This document shows, one piece after another, positions 5,649 to 13,672 of a DNA stretch of 21,827 nucleotides. Both the position numbers and the translations under genes were made by a program. The DNA lies in contig JBGAQA010000007.1 in assembly GCA_044220955.1 (NCBI GenBank), forward strand, positions 25,468 through 47,294, in the 5' to 3' direction. Numbering within the stretch: the first letter of the stretch is position 1; each line of letters starts with the position of its first letter. The DNA comes from Sandaracinaceae bacterium. GTDB lineage: Bacteria; Myxococcota_A; Polyangia; Polyangiales; Sandaracinaceae. Below the pieces are notes generated by a model. It saw only the letters and a program-made list of their open reading frames with translations. It was not told the origin of the DNA and did no database searches.

Positions 5649-7724
5649 CTACATCGACGGGGCGCCCTGACAGCAGTTCACGGGCATCAGGAAGGGCACG
5701 CAGAGCGGCGTGACCGTCCCGTCCGCCTCCACGCGGTAGTCCTCGTTCGGCACCCGCATCTCGCGCGTCATGTGGCTGCCGCTCGCGTCGGCGCGCACGC
5801 CCTCCGGGTACCCCGCGAGGGTCGCCTCGTCGCGGAGCGGGCAGAGCGGAAGGTCGCAGAAGCGCCGGATCGGCTCGCAGCACTGTGCGGGCACGTCGGT
5901 CTGCATGCTTCGGTCGATCGGGCCGACCATTCCGGCCATCGGCCCGCTCGTGTGGAGCGCGCTCTGGCACGCCATGACGCCGCGGCCCTCGCTGCGGTCG
6001 GTGCGCTGCGCGTCGGCGGCCGGTGCGTGGGTCGCGAAGTCGGCGGGATCCACGACCGCGAAGCTGCCGCGACGGCTCTGGGTCGCGAGCAGGAGGCTCC
6101 CCGACGCCGGGACGTCGTGCGGGGCGCACTGCGGGATGCGCCCCATCGCGTCCACGGGATCGAGCTGGTTCAGCGCTCCGGGGTGGTAGTCGAGATCCGG
6201 GCAGCCCAGCTCGTTCGGGACGGACCAGGCCTGGCTCGAGTACTGCCCACCCTCGTAGATGATGCCAGTGTCCGTGCGGAGCGTGGCCGCGAGCTGGCAG
6301 CTGGTCTGGCAGTCCGCCATCGGCGTCCCGGCTGCGACGCAGCTCGTCATGCAGTCCTGATAGACGTCCACCACGCGCGCGCCAGCGACGCCCGCGAGCA
6401 CGTTCACGTCGTAGTTGCCGCTCGGGATCACCTGGCACTCCGAGCGCTGTGCCTCGTAGATGTCGGCCGCATTGCCGGGCGGGATGTAGGGGACGCGGCA
6501 GAGGATCGGCTGTAGCGGGTTGGTCACGATGACGCCGACGGGCGGCACGATCACGTCGGCCGCGCTGAACGTCTCGCGCGCGATGAACCCCTGAGAGGCG
6601 CCGCCCGCGACGGTCGGGCGGATCGAGCCGATCATGAGGACGTCCGGGATGCCCGCCCGGACCTCGAAGTCGTTGCGCGCGCGCTGGAGCAGGATGATGG
6701 GCGTGTACCAGTCGACGCCGTTCGAGCCGAGGATCGGGTGGGGATCGCCGAACCCGTTCCCATCGGCGTCCACGTGCTGCACCGGCATGCCGTGGACGAG
6801 CGGGTTGAAGTCGTACTGGATGCCCGCGGCGCTCAGCGCCGGGCCCCAGGGCCGGGTCATCCCGGTGGCGTCCGCGTCGAGCTGGTCACCGCTCGCCACC
6901 AGGCTGATGCGCATCGCCGTGAGATCCCAGAGCGCCGCCTCGGCCATGATGGCGTCGGAGATGAGCGGGATCGTCGCGGTCGACGGGAGGGCTCGCGTGG
7001 TGTCGTCGACCGTGAACATCGGGCGCTCGGTGTCGATGAGCGCCCCGAGCGCCACCGCGACGCCCTGGATCCGCTCGCCCAGCGGCTCCTCGGCCTCGTT
7101 GTGGAACGTGATGTGGCGGAACACGGGCACCGCGGCGGTCGCATCGACGAGCGCGCCTCCGCCGACGTCGCCAGCCGTCGCGAGGCTGCGCGTCCCGAAG
7201 AACGGGTTGAAGTCGCCGTCGTTGTCGTAGAAGCCGCGGATCTGGTAGTCGCGGCCGGGGTACGACCCGTCCGTCTCCTGCGGCCCCGTGCCCAGCGGGA
7301 TCGAGGGCCACGTGAAGCGGCCCGTCCGCGTGATGGGCAGCAGATCGTCCGCCGTCGGCGTCAGCGGCATGCAGTCCGAGAGGTTGAAGATGTCGCGGCC
7401 ATTCAGCGCGAACAGGCTCTGCGCCGTCGTCGCGCTACCCGTCGGCGGAGGCGGGTTGTCGTAGTCGAACATCAGCATGATCACGTTGCCGCGGATCGCG
7501 ACGGGCAGGGCCGGCTCGCTCTCCGTCCAGAGGCACTGCGGCCGCGGTCCGACGTAGAGGACGCTGCCCTGGATCACACCGAGCGGGTTCGGCGAGGCGC
7601 CGCCCTCGCGACGCTGGGTGTCGATGTGCGTGTCGACGCAGCCTGCGCTGCTCGCGAGCGCGAGCGCGGAGCCGAGCGCGAACGTCGTGCGGAGGAACCT
7701 CATGTCCGTGACTCGGTCGCGCAT
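5649..7724 (-). CDS. Large Cys-rich lipoprotein of unknown function (about 691 aa), partner of the TonB-dependent receptor
   Basis: C-terminal part of track ORF 5649..10397 from MRDRVTDMRFLR. The ATG at 7724 overlaps the receptor stop (TGATG); 7703 is an alternative start. Signal peptide with lipobox ALALASSAG-C, 19 Cys, and DNDGD and DADGNG acidic loops. Confidence 0.85.
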   Translation of the reverse strand: MRDRVTDMRFLRTTFALGSALALASSAGCVDTHIDTQRREGGASPNPLGVIQGSVLYVGPRPQCLWTESEPALPVAIRGNVIMLMFDYDNPPPPTGSATTAQSLFALNGRDIFNLSDCMPLTPTADDLLPITRTGRFTWPSIPLGTGPQETDGSYPGRDYQIRGFYDNDGDFNPFFGTRSLATAGDVGGGALVDATAAVPVFRHITFHNEAEEPLGERIQGVAVALGALIDTERPMFTVDDTTRALPSTATIPLISDAIMAEAALWDLTAMRISLVASGDQLDADATGMTRPWGPALSAAGIQYDFNPLVHGMPVQHVDADGNGFGDPHPILGSNGVDWYTPIILLQRARNDFEVRAGIPDVLMIGSIRPTVAGGASQGFIARETFSAADVIVPPVGVIVTNPLQPILCRVPYIPPGNAADIYEAQRSECQVIPSGNYDVNVLAGVAGARVVDVYQDCMTSCVAAGTPMADCQTSCQLAATLRTDTGIIYEGGQYSSQAWSVPNELGCPDLDYHPGALNQLDPVDAMGRIPQCAPHDVPASGSLLLATQSRRGSFAVVDPADFATHAPAADAQRTDRSEGRGVMACQSALHTSGPMAGMVGPIDRSMQTDVPAQCCEPIRRFCDLPLCPLRDEATLAGYPEGVRADASGSHMTREMRVPNEDYRVEADGTVTPLCVPFLMPVNCCQGAPSM

Positions 7725-10444
7725 CAGAACCTCACCGTGACCGTGCCCATGAACCGGCGCGGGATCGCTTGTCCGTACGGGTGCTCGCGGTGTCCGTCGT
7801 CGATCAGGTTGTAGCCGACGACCGCGAGCTCGAGCTGGTCGTCGAGGAAGCGCCAGCCGATGCGTGCGTTGAGCGTCGTGTACGACGCGAGCGGGAAGTT
7901 CTGGAACACGATGCCGCGGACCGGATCGAGCTGCTGCTCGAACCACGTCTGCGCGCTCTGCCAGGAGAAGTCGGCCGCGAGGTCGAGGCCGAAGGGCGCG
8001 CGGTACTGGAAGCCGCCGTTGACCATGTGCGCGCTCGTGCGCTGATCCGAGTGGTAGGGGCCTGCGGCGCCGCCGAAGGGCAGCGTGTAGCTCAGCGCGT
8101 AGTTCGCGTAGAGGTCGAGGCCGTCGATCGGGTACACGCGGACGCCGACCTCGCCGCCGGCCTGCTGGAACTGCTCGGGCGAGTTCTCGTAGAGGCCGGT
8201 CGAGAAGACGTACGAGCTGAGCGTGGGGTCGTAGCCGGGCGTCGTGCCCGCGATGCTGTTCCCGTTGACGTAGTCCGTGAGGCGGAAGATCTGGTTCTGC
8301 GTCAGCGTGATCAGGTCGAACGCCAGGTTGTAGTAGGCGTTGAACTCCAGCGTGAAGTAGTCGGTCATGGCGTTCATGTAGCCAATCTCGCCCGACACGA
8401 TGCGCTCGGGGTTCATGCTGGGGTTGCCGCTGCCGAACGCCGTGACGCCGCGGAAGGGCGTGCCCTGGGGCACCAGCACGTACGACTCGGTGAACGTCGG
8501 CGAACGGAAGGCGCTGCCCGCCGTGAAGCGCAGCGTGTTGCCCGGCGCCGGGTGGATGACGAGCGAGCCACGCGGCGAGACCTGCACGTTGAGCAGGGGA
8601 TGCAGGTCGCCGCGGATCGAGAGGACCAGGTCCACGTCCTCGCTGAACGAGATGGTGTCCTGGAGGAAGACAGCGCCGTGGTTCTGCGACTGGACCTCGC
8701 CGCGCAGCCACGTCCAGTCGATCTCCTTGAACCGGTAGCCGACGCCGGCGATGAGGTGGTTGCGGATGGCGCCGAGATCGAACGTCGCGTTGTAGAGCAG
8801 CTCGACGTCGATCACGTCCGACCGGCGCACGCTGGTGTTCTGCGAGAACGCGATGCCGCCGTTCAGCTGGTCGGGCGCGCCGATGTCCGGCGCCGAGAAG
8901 CGGTTCCAGAACACGCGCCCCGACAGGCCGACCGGCGAGGTCAGCTGGATGAAGCTCTGCGACTGGTAGGTCCCGCGCATGTCGAGCTGCCGGAGGTTGG
9001 CGACGGCCTGGAAGTTCAGCGATCCCTCGGCGACCGCGACGCCGCCGCGGATGCCCCAGCCGCCGTCGAGGCGGACCTGCGCCTCGCCACCGAAGAAGAG
9101 GCGCTCGAAGCCGCCGGTCGAGCCCGGACGCGGCGTGTAGTCGACGCGCGCGGGGTCGACGTTGAACGTGTAGTTGTCGCCGCGCTCGTAGCCGCCGCTG
9201 ACGCGGAAGCGCCAGCGATCGGCGTGGCCGCTCGCGCCGGCCGCGAGGCGGTAGACGCCGTTCGTGCCGACGCCGCCCGTGACGTAGCTGCCGCCCTCGC
9301 CGAGCTGCCGCGTGATGATGTTGATGACGCCCGTGAAGGCGTCGGCGCCATAGAGGGCCGAGGCGGGGCCTCGGATGACCTCGATGCGGTCGATGTCCTC
9401 GATGTTGACGGGCAGCAGGTGGAAGAGCGTGACGCCGATGAAGTCCAAGTACACCGAGCGGCCGTCCACGAGGACGATCGTGCGGTTCGAGAGGCGCTGG
9501 TTGAATCCGCGGATGCTGATCTGCGGATCGGCCGGGTCGGACGACATGATGGACAGACCCGCGACGCGACGCAGCGCGAACGCGGGATTGGTGTAGCCCG
9601 ACAGGCGCAGGTCCTGAGCGGTGACGATGGCGGTCGAGTTCGGCGCGTCGAGGGGCGACTGCGCGACGCGCGACGACGAGACGACGCTCTCTTCGTACGC
9701 GTCGGCCTCGTGCCCCGCGCCGAGCTCCAGCGTCGCCGGCAGCTCCTCCTCCTCGCCCTCGGCAGACGTCTCGGTGACCTCTGCGGTCTCGGTCTCGGCC
9801 GTCTCGCCGGTCTCCGCGGTGCCCGTCTCGCCCGTCTCGGCCGTCGTCGTCGAGGCGGTCTGGCGCTCGCGCAGCGACGCCGCGAGCTCGCGGAGGCGCT
9901 CGGCGCGGTGGCGGAGCTCCTCGGACTGCGCGGCCTCGGCCAGAGCCTCGATCTGCGTCGCCGAGTCCGTCAGCGCGCGGATCTCGTCGTCGGAGGCGAC
10001 CGGCGACGTCGTGGTCGTGGTCGTGGTCTCGCCGGTCTCCGCGGTGGTCGTCGTCTCCGCGACGTGGGTGCGCCCCTCCTGTGCGGCCACGCGCTGCTCG
10101 AGCGCGGCCAGGAACTGCTCGACCTCTTCGCGGTCGGCCGGGTCGCTCTCGAGGTACTGCCGGTAGTAGTCGATCGCCTCGGTGTAGCGACCGGCCTCCG
10201 CGTAGGCGCGCGCGATGTTGTAGAGGGCGTTGGGGTGCGGAAGGATGTCGTAGGCTTCGCGGAGCTCGGCGATGCCGTCGTCGAGGTGCCCGTCGGCGAT
10301 CAGCGCCATTCCGTGACGAAAGTGCTGGCGAGCTTCCGTTCGAACGTCGGCGTGCGCGACGTTGATCCCGACGATCGATGCGGCCAGCGATGCGCACAGG
10401 GCGAGCACGACGCGCGTCGCGCTCTCCCGATAGCGTTCCTTCAT
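7724..10444 (-). CDS. TonB-dependent outer-membrane receptor with N-terminal TPR domain
   Basis: Signal peptide ending ...AHA, then TPR-like helices (EARQHFRHG...EAYDILPHPNALYNIARAY...AIDYYRQYLE) and a Thr/Glu linker. Plug domain: VVSSSRVAQSPLDAP, ISIRGFN, VLVDGRSVY, IDRIEVIRGPASALYGADAFTGVINIITR. Barrel ends ...GYNLID...RRFMGTVTVRF with a terminal Phe. Start at MKERY (10444), with GAGGGA upstream. Confidence 0.95.
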   Translation of the reverse strand: MKERYRESATRVVLALCASLAASIVGINVAHADVRTEARQHFRHGMALIADGHLDDGIAELREAYDILPHPNALYNIARAYAEAGRYTEAIDYYRQYLESDPADREEVEQFLAALEQRVAAQEGRTHVAETTTTAETGETTTTTTTSPVASDDEIRALTDSATQIEALAEAAQSEELRHRAERLRELAASLRERQTASTTTAETGETGTAETGETAETETAEVTETSAEGEEEELPATLELGAGHEADAYEESVVSSSRVAQSPLDAPNSTAIVTAQDLRLSGYTNPAFALRRVAGLSIMSSDPADPQISIRGFNQRLSNRTIVLVDGRSVYLDFIGVTLFHLLPVNIEDIDRIEVIRGPASALYGADAFTGVINIITRQLGEGGSYVTGGVGTNGVYRLAAGASGHADRWRFRVSGGYERGDNYTFNVDPARVDYTPRPGSTGGFERLFFGGEAQVRLDGGWGIRGGVAVAEGSLNFQAVANLRQLDMRGTYQSQSFIQLTSPVGLSGRVFWNRFSAPDIGAPDQLNGGIAFSQNTSVRRSDVIDVELLYNATFDLGAIRNHLIAGVGYRFKEIDWTWLRGEVQSQNHGAVFLQDTISFSEDVDLVLSIRGDLHPLLNVQVSPRGSLVIHPAPGNTLRFTAGSAFRSPTFTESYVLVPQGTPFRGVTAFGSGNPSMNPERIVSGEIGYMNAMTDYFTLEFNAYYNLAFDLITLTQNQIFRLTDYVNGNSIAGTTPGYDPTLSSYVFSTGLYENSPEQFQQAGGEVGVRVYPIDGLDLYANYALSYTLPFGGAAGPYHSDQRTSAHMVNGGFQYRAPFGLDLAADFSWQSAQTWFEQQLDPVRGIVFQNFPLASYTTLNARIGWRFLDDQLELAVVGYNLIDDGHREHPYGQAIPRRFMGTVTVRF
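9775..10065 (-). repeat. Low-complexity Thr/Glu-rich linker repeats (TAETGET-like) within the receptor
   Basis: Protein segments AETTTTAETGETTTTTTT and TTTAETGETGTAETGETAETETAEVTETS flank a helical segment. On the + strand they appear as repeated gtctcg/gtctcc units. Confidence 0.7.
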
Positions 10445-10591: not shown

Positions 10592-12073
10592 TCAGCGCGT
10601 GACGCCGTAGGCCTCGCCCATCCGCGTCCAGAGGTAGTCGAGCAGGTCCAGGACGTGATCGCGTCGACCGACGGCCGCCCGCACGATCTCGGGCGCCTCG
10701 TGCAGGTGCCCGACGTCGTGAACATGCCCGCGCAGCCACGTGAGGATGGGCGCGAACTCGCCTTGGCCGATGCGCTGCCAGAACCCGTCGACGCCCCCCT
10801 GCTCCATCGTCTTGCCGAGGCTGGCGGCGTAGAGGTTGCCCAGGGTGTAGCTCGGGAAGTAGCCGAAGAGCCCCGCCGACCAGTGCACGTCCTGCAGGCA
10901 GCCGCGCGCGTCGTCGGGGGGTGTGACGCCGAGGTACTCGCGGTACTTCGCGTTCCACGCCGCGGGCACGTCCGCGACGCTCAGCTTGCCCTCGAAGAGC
11001 GCGAGCTCGAGCTCGAAGCGCACGATGATGTGCAGGTTGTAGGTGACCTCGTCCGCTTGCACGCGGACGAGGCTTCGCTCGACGCGGTTCTGGGCCGCGA
11101 ACACCTGCTCGGGCGTGACCTCGGCTCCGGGGAACTGCTCTCGGATGCGCGCCGCGAGCCACCCGGCGAAGGGGCGGCTCCGTCCGACGTAGTTCTCCCA
11201 GAAGCGCGACTGCGACTCGTGCAGACCGAAGCTCGCCGCCTCGCGCACGGTCGTCCCCGCGTGCCGGTGCGGCAGCCCTTGCTCGTAGAGCGCGTGGCCG
11301 GTCTCGTGGATGGTGCTGCCGAGCCCGCCGAGCAGATCGTCTTCGTGCAGGTGGGTCGTGATGCGGACGTCGCCCTCGCCCTGACCCGTCGAGAACGGGT
11401 GCTCGGCCGCGTCGAGGCGCCCGGCTTCGAAGTCGTAGCCCAGCCCGGCAGCGACGGCCTTGCTGAGCGCCCACTGCTTCTCGAGGTCGAACTCGCCGGT
11501 GAGCGGCGCGAGCGCCGGCCTCCGTGCGATCGCCTGGATCAGGGGGACCAGACCGTCGCGCAGGCGCGCGAACATCGCGCGCAGGCTCTCGACGTCGGTG
11601 CCCGGGTCGTACTGCTCGAGCACGACCTCGTAGGGGTGGCGCTCGGCGTCGATCGCGCGCGCCCGCTCGAGCTGGAGCGCGAGCAGCTTCTCGAGCACGG
11701 GCGCGAACGTCGAGAACGAGCTGGTCTTCTTGGCCTCGATCCAGGCCTGGAACGCGTCGCTCTTGGTGCGCGCGAGGCGGTCGACGAGATCCGCCGGGAC
11801 GCGTCGCTCGCGTCGGTAGGCGCGCCCGAGGTTCCGCGCGCACGCGCGCTCGATCGGATCGTTCGCGTCGAGCCCCTCGAGCCAGTCACCGATCCGCGCG
11901 TCGGTGATGCGCTCGTGCGAGAGCCGCGAGAGCAAGGCCATCTGCGCGCCCCGGAGCGCGGCCGCCTTCTTCGGCATGTACGTCTGCTCGTCCCAGCCGA
12001 GCGTGGCCGCGACTCCGTCGAGCGTCTCGAGCTCGGTCAGGTGCGCACGTAGCGATGCGAAGGCCGCCGTCAT
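10592..12073 (-). CDS. Carboxypeptidase, peptidase family M32 (Taq-type)
   Basis: LGWDEQTYMP, GRLDAAEHPF, DVRITT, IHETGHALYEQG (HEXXH), LHESQSRFWEN, VRVQADEVTYNLH, GCLQDVHWSAGLFGYFPSYTLGN. Confidence 0.97.
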   Translation of the reverse strand: MTAAFASLRAHLTELETLDGVAATLGWDEQTYMPKKAAALRGAQMALLSRLSHERITDARIGDWLEGLDANDPIERACARNLGRAYRRERRVPADLVDRLARTKSDAFQAWIEAKKTSSFSTFAPVLEKLLALQLERARAIDAERHPYEVVLEQYDPGTDVESLRAMFARLRDGLVPLIQAIARRPALAPLTGEFDLEKQWALSKAVAAGLGYDFEAGRLDAAEHPFSTGQGEGDVRITTHLHEDDLLGGLGSTIHETGHALYEQGLPHRHAGTTVREAASFGLHESQSRFWENYVGRSRPFAGWLAARIREQFPGAEVTPEQVFAAQNRVERSLVRVQADEVTYNLHIIVRFELELALFEGKLSVADVPAAWNAKYREYLGVTPPDDARGCLQDVHWSAGLFGYFPSYTLGNLYAASLGKTMEQGGVDGFWQRIGQGEFAPILTWLRGHVHDVGHLHEAPEIVRAAVGRRDHVLDLLDYLWTRMGEAYGVTR

Positions 12074-12118
12074 ATGGCCGTCGTTCGTATCACGAGACGG
12101 TCGCAGGCGATTCGACGG

Positions 12119-12171
12119 AAAAAAAAGCGGCGGCTCGTGGGCTGGGGGGGGACGCCTTCACGAGCCGCCAC
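12119..12171 (-). ncRNA. Candidate ~53-nt sRNA: single hairpin with C8 loop plus U8 tail (the hairpin is also an intrinsic terminator)
   Basis: Minus strand: GU-GGCGGCUCGUG-AA-GGC-GUCCCCCCCCA-GCC-CACGAGCCGCC-GC-UUUUUUUU. Perfect 11-bp stem (12129-12139 with 12159-12169), extendable to 13 bp. It begins where the adjacent sigma54 promoter predicts +1. Confidence 0.55.
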
Positions 12172-12180
12172 CCTCGCTGT

Positions 12181-12197
12181 TAGCGACAGCCGTGCCA
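12181..12197 (-). promoter_or_regulatory. sigma54 (RpoN) -24/-12 promoter
   Basis: Minus strand TGGCACG-GCTG-TCGCTA against consensus TGGCACG-N4-TTGCW (one mismatch). GG (12196-12195) and GC (12184-12183) are exactly 10 nt apart. Confidence 0.7.
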
Positions 12198-12259
12198 CCG
12201 CCCGTGTCCTGGCTTCCCCCGCAAATCCAGCGATCGGCGGCATGGATGGTGGGGAGGCG

Positions 12260-12293
12260 TTTCAGTTCTGCATTTCAGATGTGCAATGTGCAC
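12260..12293. promoter_or_regulatory. Putative upstream activator sequence for a sigma54 enhancer-binding protein
   Basis: AT-richer patch with TGCA-N9-TGCA (TGCATTTCAGATGTGCA, 12269-12285), GTGCA-ATG-TGCAC (12281-12293) and TTTCAG twice (13-bp period). It lies about 90-120 bp upstream of the predicted +1. Confidence 0.5.
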
Positions 12294-12316
12294 CGGGATG
12301 CGCGCTCGCCTCGTGC

Positions 12317-13672
12317 TCAGTCGCCTCCGCCCGAGCCGAAGATGAACGGGAACACCACATCGACCTCGCCGCCGTCGGGCTGGTCGAAGCGCCAGTTCCG
12401 CACCTGCCGCACGATGCACCCCTCCACGCCTGGGTTGCCCATCGTCGAGCGCGCGACGCGCGAGGTCGTGACGCGCCCCTCGCGGTTGATCCGCCAGGCG
12501 ATCTCGATGCGCCCACGCAGGCTCGGCTGTCGCTGGAGCTGGGCCTCGTAGCAGTAGCGGACGGCGGCCTGGTTCTGCCGCACCACGCGCATGATCTGCT
12601 CGGGCGAGAGGTAGCCGGACACGTGCGGCGTCTCGGTCTGCATGCGCACCGCGACCTCACCGTGCGGACGGCCGCGGGCGCCGGGGCCACCGCTGCCCCG
12701 TCCGCCGCCGGAGCCGCTGCCGACGCCGACGCCGGTTCCGACGCCGCCGCCTCCGAACAGCGTCCCGGGCCCGGTGCCACCACCGCCCGAGCCGGTGCCG
12801 CGCAGGCCCGTACCGCCCGAGCCGCGGCCCCAGACGGTCCGGGCCGATCCCAGCCCGCCGAGGATGTCGCTCACGCTCGGCCCGTCCGCGAGCGCGGCGA
12901 GGGGCGAGTCGGAGTGGAGGGCCTTCAAGAGGCCCATGTCGGACACGCGCTCGGCCGCGCCGCCGCCGCCGTTCACCTCACCCTCGAGCTCGGTCTGGTC
13001 TTGCTGCGCGTCTTCCTGCCCGACGCGGCCTTCCTCGTCCTCCGCCTGTGCACCCCCCGCCTCGTCGCGATCCTGGATGCCGGGATCCTCGGTGTCGGTG
13101 CCCCCCGTCTGCTGCTCGATGAGGTCCTCCGGAGGCGGCGTGACCATGAAGCGGGTGATCAGGTCCGTCGGCAGCTCGAGCGCGTCGAGGTCGTCGCTCT
13201 CCTCGCGCGCGAGGTACATCATCCCGCCGAAGGCGGCCGCGAAGAACGCCGAGAGCATCTGGCTCGCCCAGTACGTCCCGTCGAAAGCGAGGGACCACCC
13301 TGGCTTCTTGGCGGCGCGGACGTGCTGGAAAAAGAAGGCGACCTGCCCGAGCGTGACGACCCCGTAGTCGTCGGGCCCCAGATCGAGGCTCGGGCCGCTG
13401 GCCCTCAGGGACGACACGTCCTGCCGCGCGCCTCCTCGCCAGACGGCGCCGCCCAGCTCCGAGGCGAGGTTGAGGCGGTACCCGTTGCCGGCGGGCGTGA
13501 GCAGCGTGACGTCGCTCGGCGCCAGGTCGGACGGGAGCGGGAGCAGCGCCGCCGCCGTGTTGCCCGCGATGATCGGCCGCGGCTTGTCGATGGTGGTCTC
13601 CATCTGGAGCGACCCGTTCCAGACGAGGGCCACGCGGAGCTTTCGGTCGGAGGCGCTGACGGCTGTGCTCAT
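12317..13672 (-). CDS. AgmX/PglI C-terminal (TonB-C-like) domain protein, GltG-like gliding-motility paralogue
   Basis: N-terminal beta-rich cytoplasmic domain (KLRVALVWNG...), one TM segment (MLSAFFAAAFGGMMYL), an acidic then Gly-rich linker, and C-terminal GYLSPEQIMRVVRQNQAAVRYCYEAQLQRQPSLRGRIEIAWRI...VEGCIVRQVRNWRFDQPDGGEVDVVFPFIF. Confidence 0.85.
   Translation of the reverse strand: MSTAVSASDRKLRVALVWNGSLQMETTIDKPRPIIAGNTAAALLPLPSDLAPSDVTLLTPAGNGYRLNLASELGGAVWRGGARQDVSSLRASGPSLDLGPDDYGVVTLGQVAFFFQHVRAAKKPGWSLAFDGTYWASQMLSAFFAAAFGGMMYLAREESDDLDALELPTDLITRFMVTPPPEDLIEQQTGGTDTEDPGIQDRDEAGGAQAEDEEGRVGQEDAQQDQTELEGEVNGGGGAAERVSDMGLLKALHSDSPLAALADGPSVSDILGGLGSARTVWGRGSGGTGLRGTGSGGGGTGPGTLFGGGGVGTGVGVGSGSGGGRGSGGPGARGRPHGEVAVRMQTETPHVSGYLSPEQIMRVVRQNQAAVRYCYEAQLQRQPSLRGRIEIAWRINREGRVTTSRVARSTMGNPGVEGCIVRQVRNWRFDQPDGGEVDVVFPFIFGSGGGD

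Follow-up and report, generated by a model that had tools for sequence, protein, structure and literature searches.

A conserved sigma54-promoter-plus-hairpin unit in Sandaracinaceae and its likely relation to the myxobacterial small RNA Pxr

Pxr and other small RNAs with C-rich loops

Pxr is a small RNA that gates fruiting-body development in Myxococcus, and PMC5568312, PMC5684412, PMC8538405 and PMC11928866 present it as a recent invention of a single suborder. In Myxococcus, the gene order is pxrR, enhancer region, sigma54 promoter and pxr; PMC5684412 locates the functionally critical C in the loop of the first stem-loop (SL1) and assigns to SL3 an 8-bp stem needed for accumulation. The sequence-only reading that first drew attention to the present locus had placed the critical poly-C in the terminal stem-loop, which is at odds with that source. 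For the 6C sRNA of Actinobacteria, PMC6486639 describes chaperone-free G-C pairing between C-rich loops and mRNA.

Here, we analysed a window of 21,827 nt (the whole stretch of DNA under study) from a Sandaracinaceae bacterium with a genome of 7.5 Mb (72.5% GC, 88% complete) in which rpoN was found. On the minus strand, at 12119-12293, lies a unit predicted to yield a 53-nt hairpin RNA. Like pxr, it combines a sigma54 promoter with an upstream region bearing the same palindrome consensus, the activator PxrR has an orthologue in the host, and a family paralogue sits directly downstream of that activator. The hairpin apex, in which a 3-bp apical stem with a 5'-side bulge beneath it carries a U-C7/8 loop, resembles that of SL1 when the fold is set against the Rfam consensus. 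As with Pxr, the hosts appear to be without Hfq (found in 0 of 5 genomes tested by a search that detected 5 of 14 controls). Unlike Pxr, which comprises three hairpins (SL1-SL3) in about 109 nt, the predicted RNA is one hairpin of about 53 nt with no SL2, close relatives having one or two, and its C-loop and terminator are merged in that hairpin. Whereas pxr stands directly downstream of pxrK-pxrR, the 12119-12293 copy is far from the activator gene and has no adjacent kinase; and whereas Pxr belongs to Cystobacterineae, the family described here belongs to a different order and often occurs in two to six copies.

The unit also resembles the 6C sRNA (RF01066) in being a GC-rich hairpin with a C-run loop and a U tail. 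The locus matches that model weakly, at 16.9 bits (E 2.5, gathering cut-off of 47 not reached), and its two-hairpin relatives do so at 28.8-31.6 bits. However, 6C has two C-loops and comes from another phylum while the locus has one hairpin, and convergence is the preferred account of their similarity. Cuckoo/CcsR and Scr3202 (RF02791, RF02833) share C-rich loops and modular hairpins, and family members score 10.9-34.8 bits on their models, below the gathering cut-offs of 65.3 and 52; unlike theirs, the loop here is pure poly-C, not CCUCCUCCC, and we take their promoters to be of a different type from the sigma54 unit. Rfam scans of the locus and of family members returned nothing above any cut-off, and our literature search, with most subscription papers outside its reach, found no publication on such RNAs outside Cystobacterineae.

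Anatomy and conservation of the unit

The sequence-only reading had proposed a promoter, a hairpin and a U8 tail in the order and spacing of a transcription unit, and each element indeed lies where it had been placed on the minus strand. The sigma54 -24/-12 promoter (GG-N10-GC, 12182-12197) reads TGGCAC-N5-TCGCT from 12197 to 12182 and has its predicted +1 near 12171. The putative 53-nt RNA (12119-12171), predicted from its fold, from covariation and from the covariance models R1 and R2, consists of a stem (12127-12171), a loop and a tail. The stem has a 13-bp base (arms 12171-12159 and 12139-12127), an AA bulge (12157-12158) and a 3-bp apical stem; the 11-nt loop (12143-12153) contains a C8 run (12144-12151) as the predicted pairing seed; and the U8 tail (12119-12126) is the predicted intrinsic terminator of the RNA, which in this genus may have the additional role of ending the upstream mRNA. 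T/A runs of at least 8 occur only seven times in the whole 7.5-Mb genome. The 53-mer has a folding energy of -31.7 kcal/mol (z = -7.65), equalled by 0 of 200 shuffles.

Upstream of the promoter, a 12-bp palindrome, T[TG]CA-N4-TG[AC]A, occurs twice on the minus strand, as a distal (12274-12285) and a proximal (12261-12272) activator site, predicted to be of PxrR type; the distal site is conserved in relatives. The TGCA-N9-TGCA activator-like site read earlier at 12269-12285 is present, but it is a composite of the left halves of these two tandem palindromes, and relatives preserve the 12-mers rather than the TGCA-N9-TGCA form. The distance from the unit to the preceding stop codon is 145 nt, in agreement with the initial estimate. 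A coding role was rejected: as already proposed, the unit holds no credible ORF, the overlapping plus-strand ORFs are judged to be antisense shadows, and homologues carry indels of 1-2 nt.

This combination of features exceeds what chance would give in the host genome. Among 1105 sigma54-like sites, 15 are followed by a C6+ run at a distance of 15-70 nt, 4 are preceded by the palindrome, and 2 show both, namely the 12119-12293 locus and a locus directly behind the pxrR orthologue. A C6+ run was present in only 3 of the 336 terminator-like hairpins in the genome.

The dependence on conservation that the sequence-only reading had built into its proposal was borne out among relatives. Blastn over 61 related genomes gave strong matches in 9 other genomes of three genera, all of which keep the promoter, the hairpin and the palindromes while the spacers diverge with indels; the TGGCA and GCT parts of the promoter are invariant in all 10 close homologues. 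With model R1, built from these 10, matches came from 57 of the 150 genomes sampled in the order and, at family level, from 24 of 32. Model R2, built from 33 of the R1 hits, matched 92 of the 150, with up to six copies each, so that the search for a wider family and for paralogues suggested earlier yielded both. Outside the order, in genome samples not demonstrably including cultured Myxococcaceae or Anaeromyxobacteraceae, R2 matched 2 of 125 genomes; these two were not counted as members, having a CCUCCC-type loop and no operator. In both (L146 and L152, family f52), a sigma54 promoter accompanies a hairpin whose loop is CCCCCUCCCUCC; they may form an anti-SD RNA family of their own.

Across the 33 members, two-sided changes occur at 12 of the 14 pairs in the model, and 97.5% of cells are paired, a level reached by 0 of 500 shuffles and compared with 32-66% in slid controls, although these figures are biased upward because the alignment was fitted to the model and its members were found by the model. 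Within the 10 closest homologues alone covariation is uninformative, as 11 of 16 pairs never vary. When members were folded singly, free of any alignment, all 33 of 33 left the C-run open (at most one C paired) within a stem of 10 bp or longer, whereas shuffling the flanks gave this outcome in 22%. On this comparative evidence, the conserved sigma54-promoter-plus-hairpin unit is a real, uncatalogued small-RNA gene family with a predicted transcript.

Several loci depart from the one-hairpin layout. Four two-hairpin paralogues (L080:1431-1575, L082, L084 and L085:1495-1640) place two C-loops behind one sigma54 promoter and have a variant upstream site (TTTCGGATCTG), and another locus (L157, G153:C4 about 75300-75514) has several C-loop hairpins in a tandem array.

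The predicted PxrR operator, the activator and probable kinship with Pxr

The palindrome is rare in the host genome (60 sites, once per 125 kb, 0.0016 per 200 nt), and the pair at 12274-12285 and 12261-12272 is the only tandem pair among the 60. An exact palindrome lies within 200 nt of the -24 element in 24 of 38 family loci and in 9 of 16 further loci left out of training. The exact operator is missing in 14 of the 38; in 7 of these a 14-mer with a single mismatch takes its place, against a background of 0.0009 per 200 nt. The sites fall into clusters near -55, -65, -76, -88 and -99, a spacing of about one helical turn. The same consensus was found upstream of all 9 true pxr loci, which were taken from metagenome contigs, in two to three copies each. 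Our search, which most subscription papers lay beyond, found no publication describing a PxrR binding site. Palindromes fitting the operator consensus also occur in a repeated element of the host genome (G000:C52:7177, C93:6212, C290:108574 and C294:8) that resembles an insertion-sequence end.

Using a PxrR query taken from one of the metagenome pxr loci, we identified one clear orthologue in the host genome at C253:686-2017 (53% identity), which scored 462 bits in tblastn versus 363 for the next of 48 and is the sole carrier among the 48 of the PxrR recognition helix TTLWRKMKRL. In a quick tree of the AAA core, 6 PxrR sequences and 16 orthologues of this order grouped together (SH-aLRT 98), apart from 43 other activators of the host genome. 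The PxrR-type helix-turn-helix is present in 131 of 150 genomes of the order. R2 matches were found in 89 of these 131 versus 3 of the 19 others, a comparison in which kin are not independent, and two of the three exceptions are less than 80% complete. In family f7, 9 of 10 genomes have the activator and 0 of 10 the RNA as searched with R2. A PxrK search with one query (L110) brought out no clear orthologue, and no kinase stands beside the activator in the host genome. One genome of the order with only 1.8 Mb (G148, locus L149) retains an activator of PxrR type as well as a family RNA, the latter preceded by two operator sites.

The 12119-12293 copy is on a different contig from the pxrR orthologue. 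Directly behind that orthologue, a second family hairpin (L115, G000:C253 about 2044-2215), overlooked by R1 and scoring 39.8 bits with R2, has a palindrome, a sigma54 promoter and a C8 loop, followed by a weak tail and a single-domain receiver gene. We inspected 70 of the 131 pxrR-orthologue loci (the 30 best-scoring, then 40 chosen for family spread) and found a promoter plus C7-8 hairpin directly downstream in 11 of them, from four families; one genome, G026, counts both among these 11 and among the 10 close homologues, and none of our conclusions depends on it by itself. The adjacent hairpin is absent from the other 59. In many of these the promoter drives a single-domain receiver gene, and the remainder have neither promoter nor hairpin. 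We predict that this receiver gene is a conserved protein member of the regulon. Examples are L121-L123, L128, L135-L139, L167, L174 and L176, where a sigma54-type promoter, often with a palindrome, precedes a single-domain receiver gene and no hairpin is present.

Direct comparison with Pxr is less clear-cut. The sequence-only reading had proposed a scan against the Rfam model of Pxr (RF01812, gathering cut-off 80 bits), and neither the window nor its 131-nt piece was listed at E<=10; the best family member, L085, reached 27.1 bits. Scans of 121 genomes of the phylum with RF01812 and of 301 with a Pxr probe pattern returned no match, but the positive controls were silent too, so that absence is not implied. 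Because similarity to Pxr outside the C-run reaches only borderline values when aligned (SL1, p about 0.05; SL3, p 0.29; 2 of 33 members at p<0.05 for each) and R2 gives true pxr loci only 15-21 bits, the 53-nt hairpin, as judged from its sequence, is outside RF01812. On the other side stand two resemblances. The apex motif GGY-C6+-RCC, as in Pxr SL1, occurs in 31 of 33 members, and an 8-mer like that of Pxr SL3 occurs in 16 of 33 versus 3 of 336 genomic terminators. The base of the hairpin agrees with the 8-bp stem of SL3 at 7 of 8 positions with a compensatory pair, but its alignment to SL3 is not significant (p 0.29). The two-hairpin paralogue L085, which comes from a relative and is the sequence most like Pxr among those examined, aligns with both SL1 (p 0.018) and SL3 (p 0.002), values that are uncorrected and belong to a locus chosen after inspection, and is a possible bridge to Pxr.

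The shared regulon could also have acquired its RNAs separately. In such a scenario, an ancient PxrR promoter was copied, and behind its copies a PxrR/sigma54-driven C-loop sRNA came into being with no descent from Pxr, its anti-SD poly-C loop being convergent, as with 6C in Actinobacteria. We regard a separate birth as rather unlikely. It would accommodate the want of significant alignment to Pxr beyond the C-run, the frequency with which the promoter behind pxrR orthologues drives a receiver gene with no hairpin, and the weak matches of the C-loop hairpins to the unrelated 6C and Scr3202 models as well. Against it count the hairpin at the pxr position in four families, the shared apex and SL3-like 8-mer, and the two matches and 27.1 bits of L085, with the reservation given above.

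We favour common descent with Pxr because of the operator, the activator, the position and the shape. The earlier wording, a Pxr analogue or a new C-loop sRNA family, held as to an uncatalogued family, while the tie to Pxr is stronger than "analogue" conveys, since the operator is common to both, the activator is orthologous and a paralogue occupies the pxr position. These observations suggest a greater age and a broader distribution for Pxr-like RNAs than the literature grants them. It is, in our estimate, an evenly balanced question whether Pxr, rather than arising de novo in Cystobacterineae, is an elaborated representative of poly-C-loop RNAs that together form an ancient PxrR regulon, with the 53-nt hairpin as the minimal unit and the palindrome as the PxrR operator. 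The PxrR regulon would then predate the split of the main myxobacterial lineages, and seed loop and terminator would share one stem, so made that the primary transcript already has the form for which Myxococcus depends on processing to Pxr-S. A family of this kind, sharing the operator, governed by an orthologous activator and present in 92 of 150 genomes of a different order, would push the origin of Pxr back and alter a much-cited case of small-RNA birth. It also puts at hand a precise prediction of the PxrR binding site, open to mutation in M. xanthus, and a natural 53-nt hairpin with which to ask if a C-loop on a stable stem suffices to block development, the answer to which would define what Pxr-S is.

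Proposed action, targets and gene neighbourhood

We consider that the locus probably encodes a PxrR/sigma54-driven, Hfq-independent sRNA of 53 nt that acts through its C8 loop on G-rich ribosome-binding sites and is likely a minimal, one-hairpin relative of Pxr. The phosphorylated PxrR orthologue would bind the two palindromes, which lie in tandem at a distance of 64-88 nt upstream from the -24 element, and open the sigma54 complex; transcription would run from 12171 to 12119 and stop at the U8 tail, leaving a nuclease-resistant hairpin that, unlike Pxr with its steps from Pxr-XL to Pxr-L and Pxr-S, would need no processing. The open C8 loop could then form G-C pairs with the G5-G7 Shine-Dalgarno variants of many mRNAs and repress their translation. 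The output may be a growth-versus-starvation switch as in Myxococcus, which is the weakest step of the scheme.

Start-region and target analyses were based on a set of 6104 genes that we called ourselves. Around predicted starts, the frequency of GGGGG is highest between -15 and -6, with 169 versus about 40 per 5-nt bin elsewhere, and strong loop pairing at start regions is only weakly, 1.5-fold, enriched (93 vs 62 of 5976). Target prediction on these calls brought out one appealing candidate, a G7 preceding the activator's own start, and no conserved mRNA target. Feedback through this G7 was rejected, as it is not conserved beyond the genus.

An RNA made from the locus might instead serve as a decoy, its poly-C loop titrating a factor that binds C-rich RNA (e.g., Rho or a KH protein) with no mRNA pairing involved. 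A homopolymer loop whose length varies from C6 to C10 among members carries little target information, and the tandem array of such hairpins at L157 and the want of a conserved target fit the same picture. We nevertheless hold a decoy to be improbable. The preprint bioRxiv 10.1101/2025.09.11.675593 reports, by TRIC-seq, that Pxr contacts regions near the SD sequences of several mRNAs in vivo, 6C loops are described as pairing directly with mRNA (PMC6486639), and G5 variants of the SD sequence are enriched in the host genome.

The neighbours of the unit bear on two further readings. Upstream, and outside the unit, lies a GltG-like gene with an AgmX/PglI C-terminal domain (12317-13672, minus strand; NF033768 above cut-off, the GltG model below its cut-off), and downstream an M32 carboxypeptidase gene (10592-12073, minus strand; PF02074). 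The GltG-like neighbour is retained only within the genus, and the upstream gene is divergent in 4 of 12 near-identical loci (2 with Pfam support). The M32 gene is linked downstream on the same strand in two genera only; elsewhere, the unit is placed after sspB, rlmH or HMGL-family genes, often facing a convergent gene. Because these neighbours vary, neither a plain terminator nor a leader of one gene fits well. A recurrent arrangement, seen at L074, L078, L057, L059, L077 and L067 in three genera of the family and in one other family, is sspB, the RNA and a convergent sigma54-activator gene.

Four metatranscriptome runs from three studies contained 5-12% of the sequence words, as contigs, with fragments covering 12179-12353 and 12003-12157, the first over the promoter region, the second beginning within the loop and crossing the U8 tail to enter the M32 gene. 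No contig of these four runs contains the whole predicted RNA or makes a transcript end or strand visible, and DNA carry-over is possible. The contig crossing the U8 tail, together with the M32 gene being next on the same strand in two genera, would agree with a cis-acting leader or attenuator of a PxrR/sigma54 transcript that runs into the next gene, as would the weak-tailed paralogue beside pxrR, which precedes a receiver gene whose promoter persists where the hairpin is lacking. Such a leader seems to us marginally less probable still than a decoy: other genera and families have a convergent or an unrelated gene in the next position, G007 and G023 possess a second strong terminator between hairpin and M32 gene, and folds of the longer region contain no competing antiterminator.

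An ordinary intrinsic terminator of the GltG-like gene, with promoter-like sequence present by chance, is very improbable. In its favour, no other strong terminator stands between the stop of the GltG-like gene and the gene that follows, and one RNA-library contig covers the promoter region; against it, conservation of the loop, promoter and operator persists where the upstream gene differs or is divergent, and only 3 of 336 terminators have a C6+ run. The initial preference for a stand-alone sigma54 unit over a plain terminator is supported, with an upstream gene that varies or diverges and stems that covary.

Two minor features of the surrounding region may be added. A GTGAT(A) motif at 12074-12100 (minus strand) is found again in relatives; it precedes the start of the M32 gene by about 20 nt and may serve as that gene's own promoter. 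Further along the minus strand, a TonB-dependent receptor gene with an N-terminal TPR region (7724-10444) is followed by a long gene with no NCBIfam match (5649-7685).
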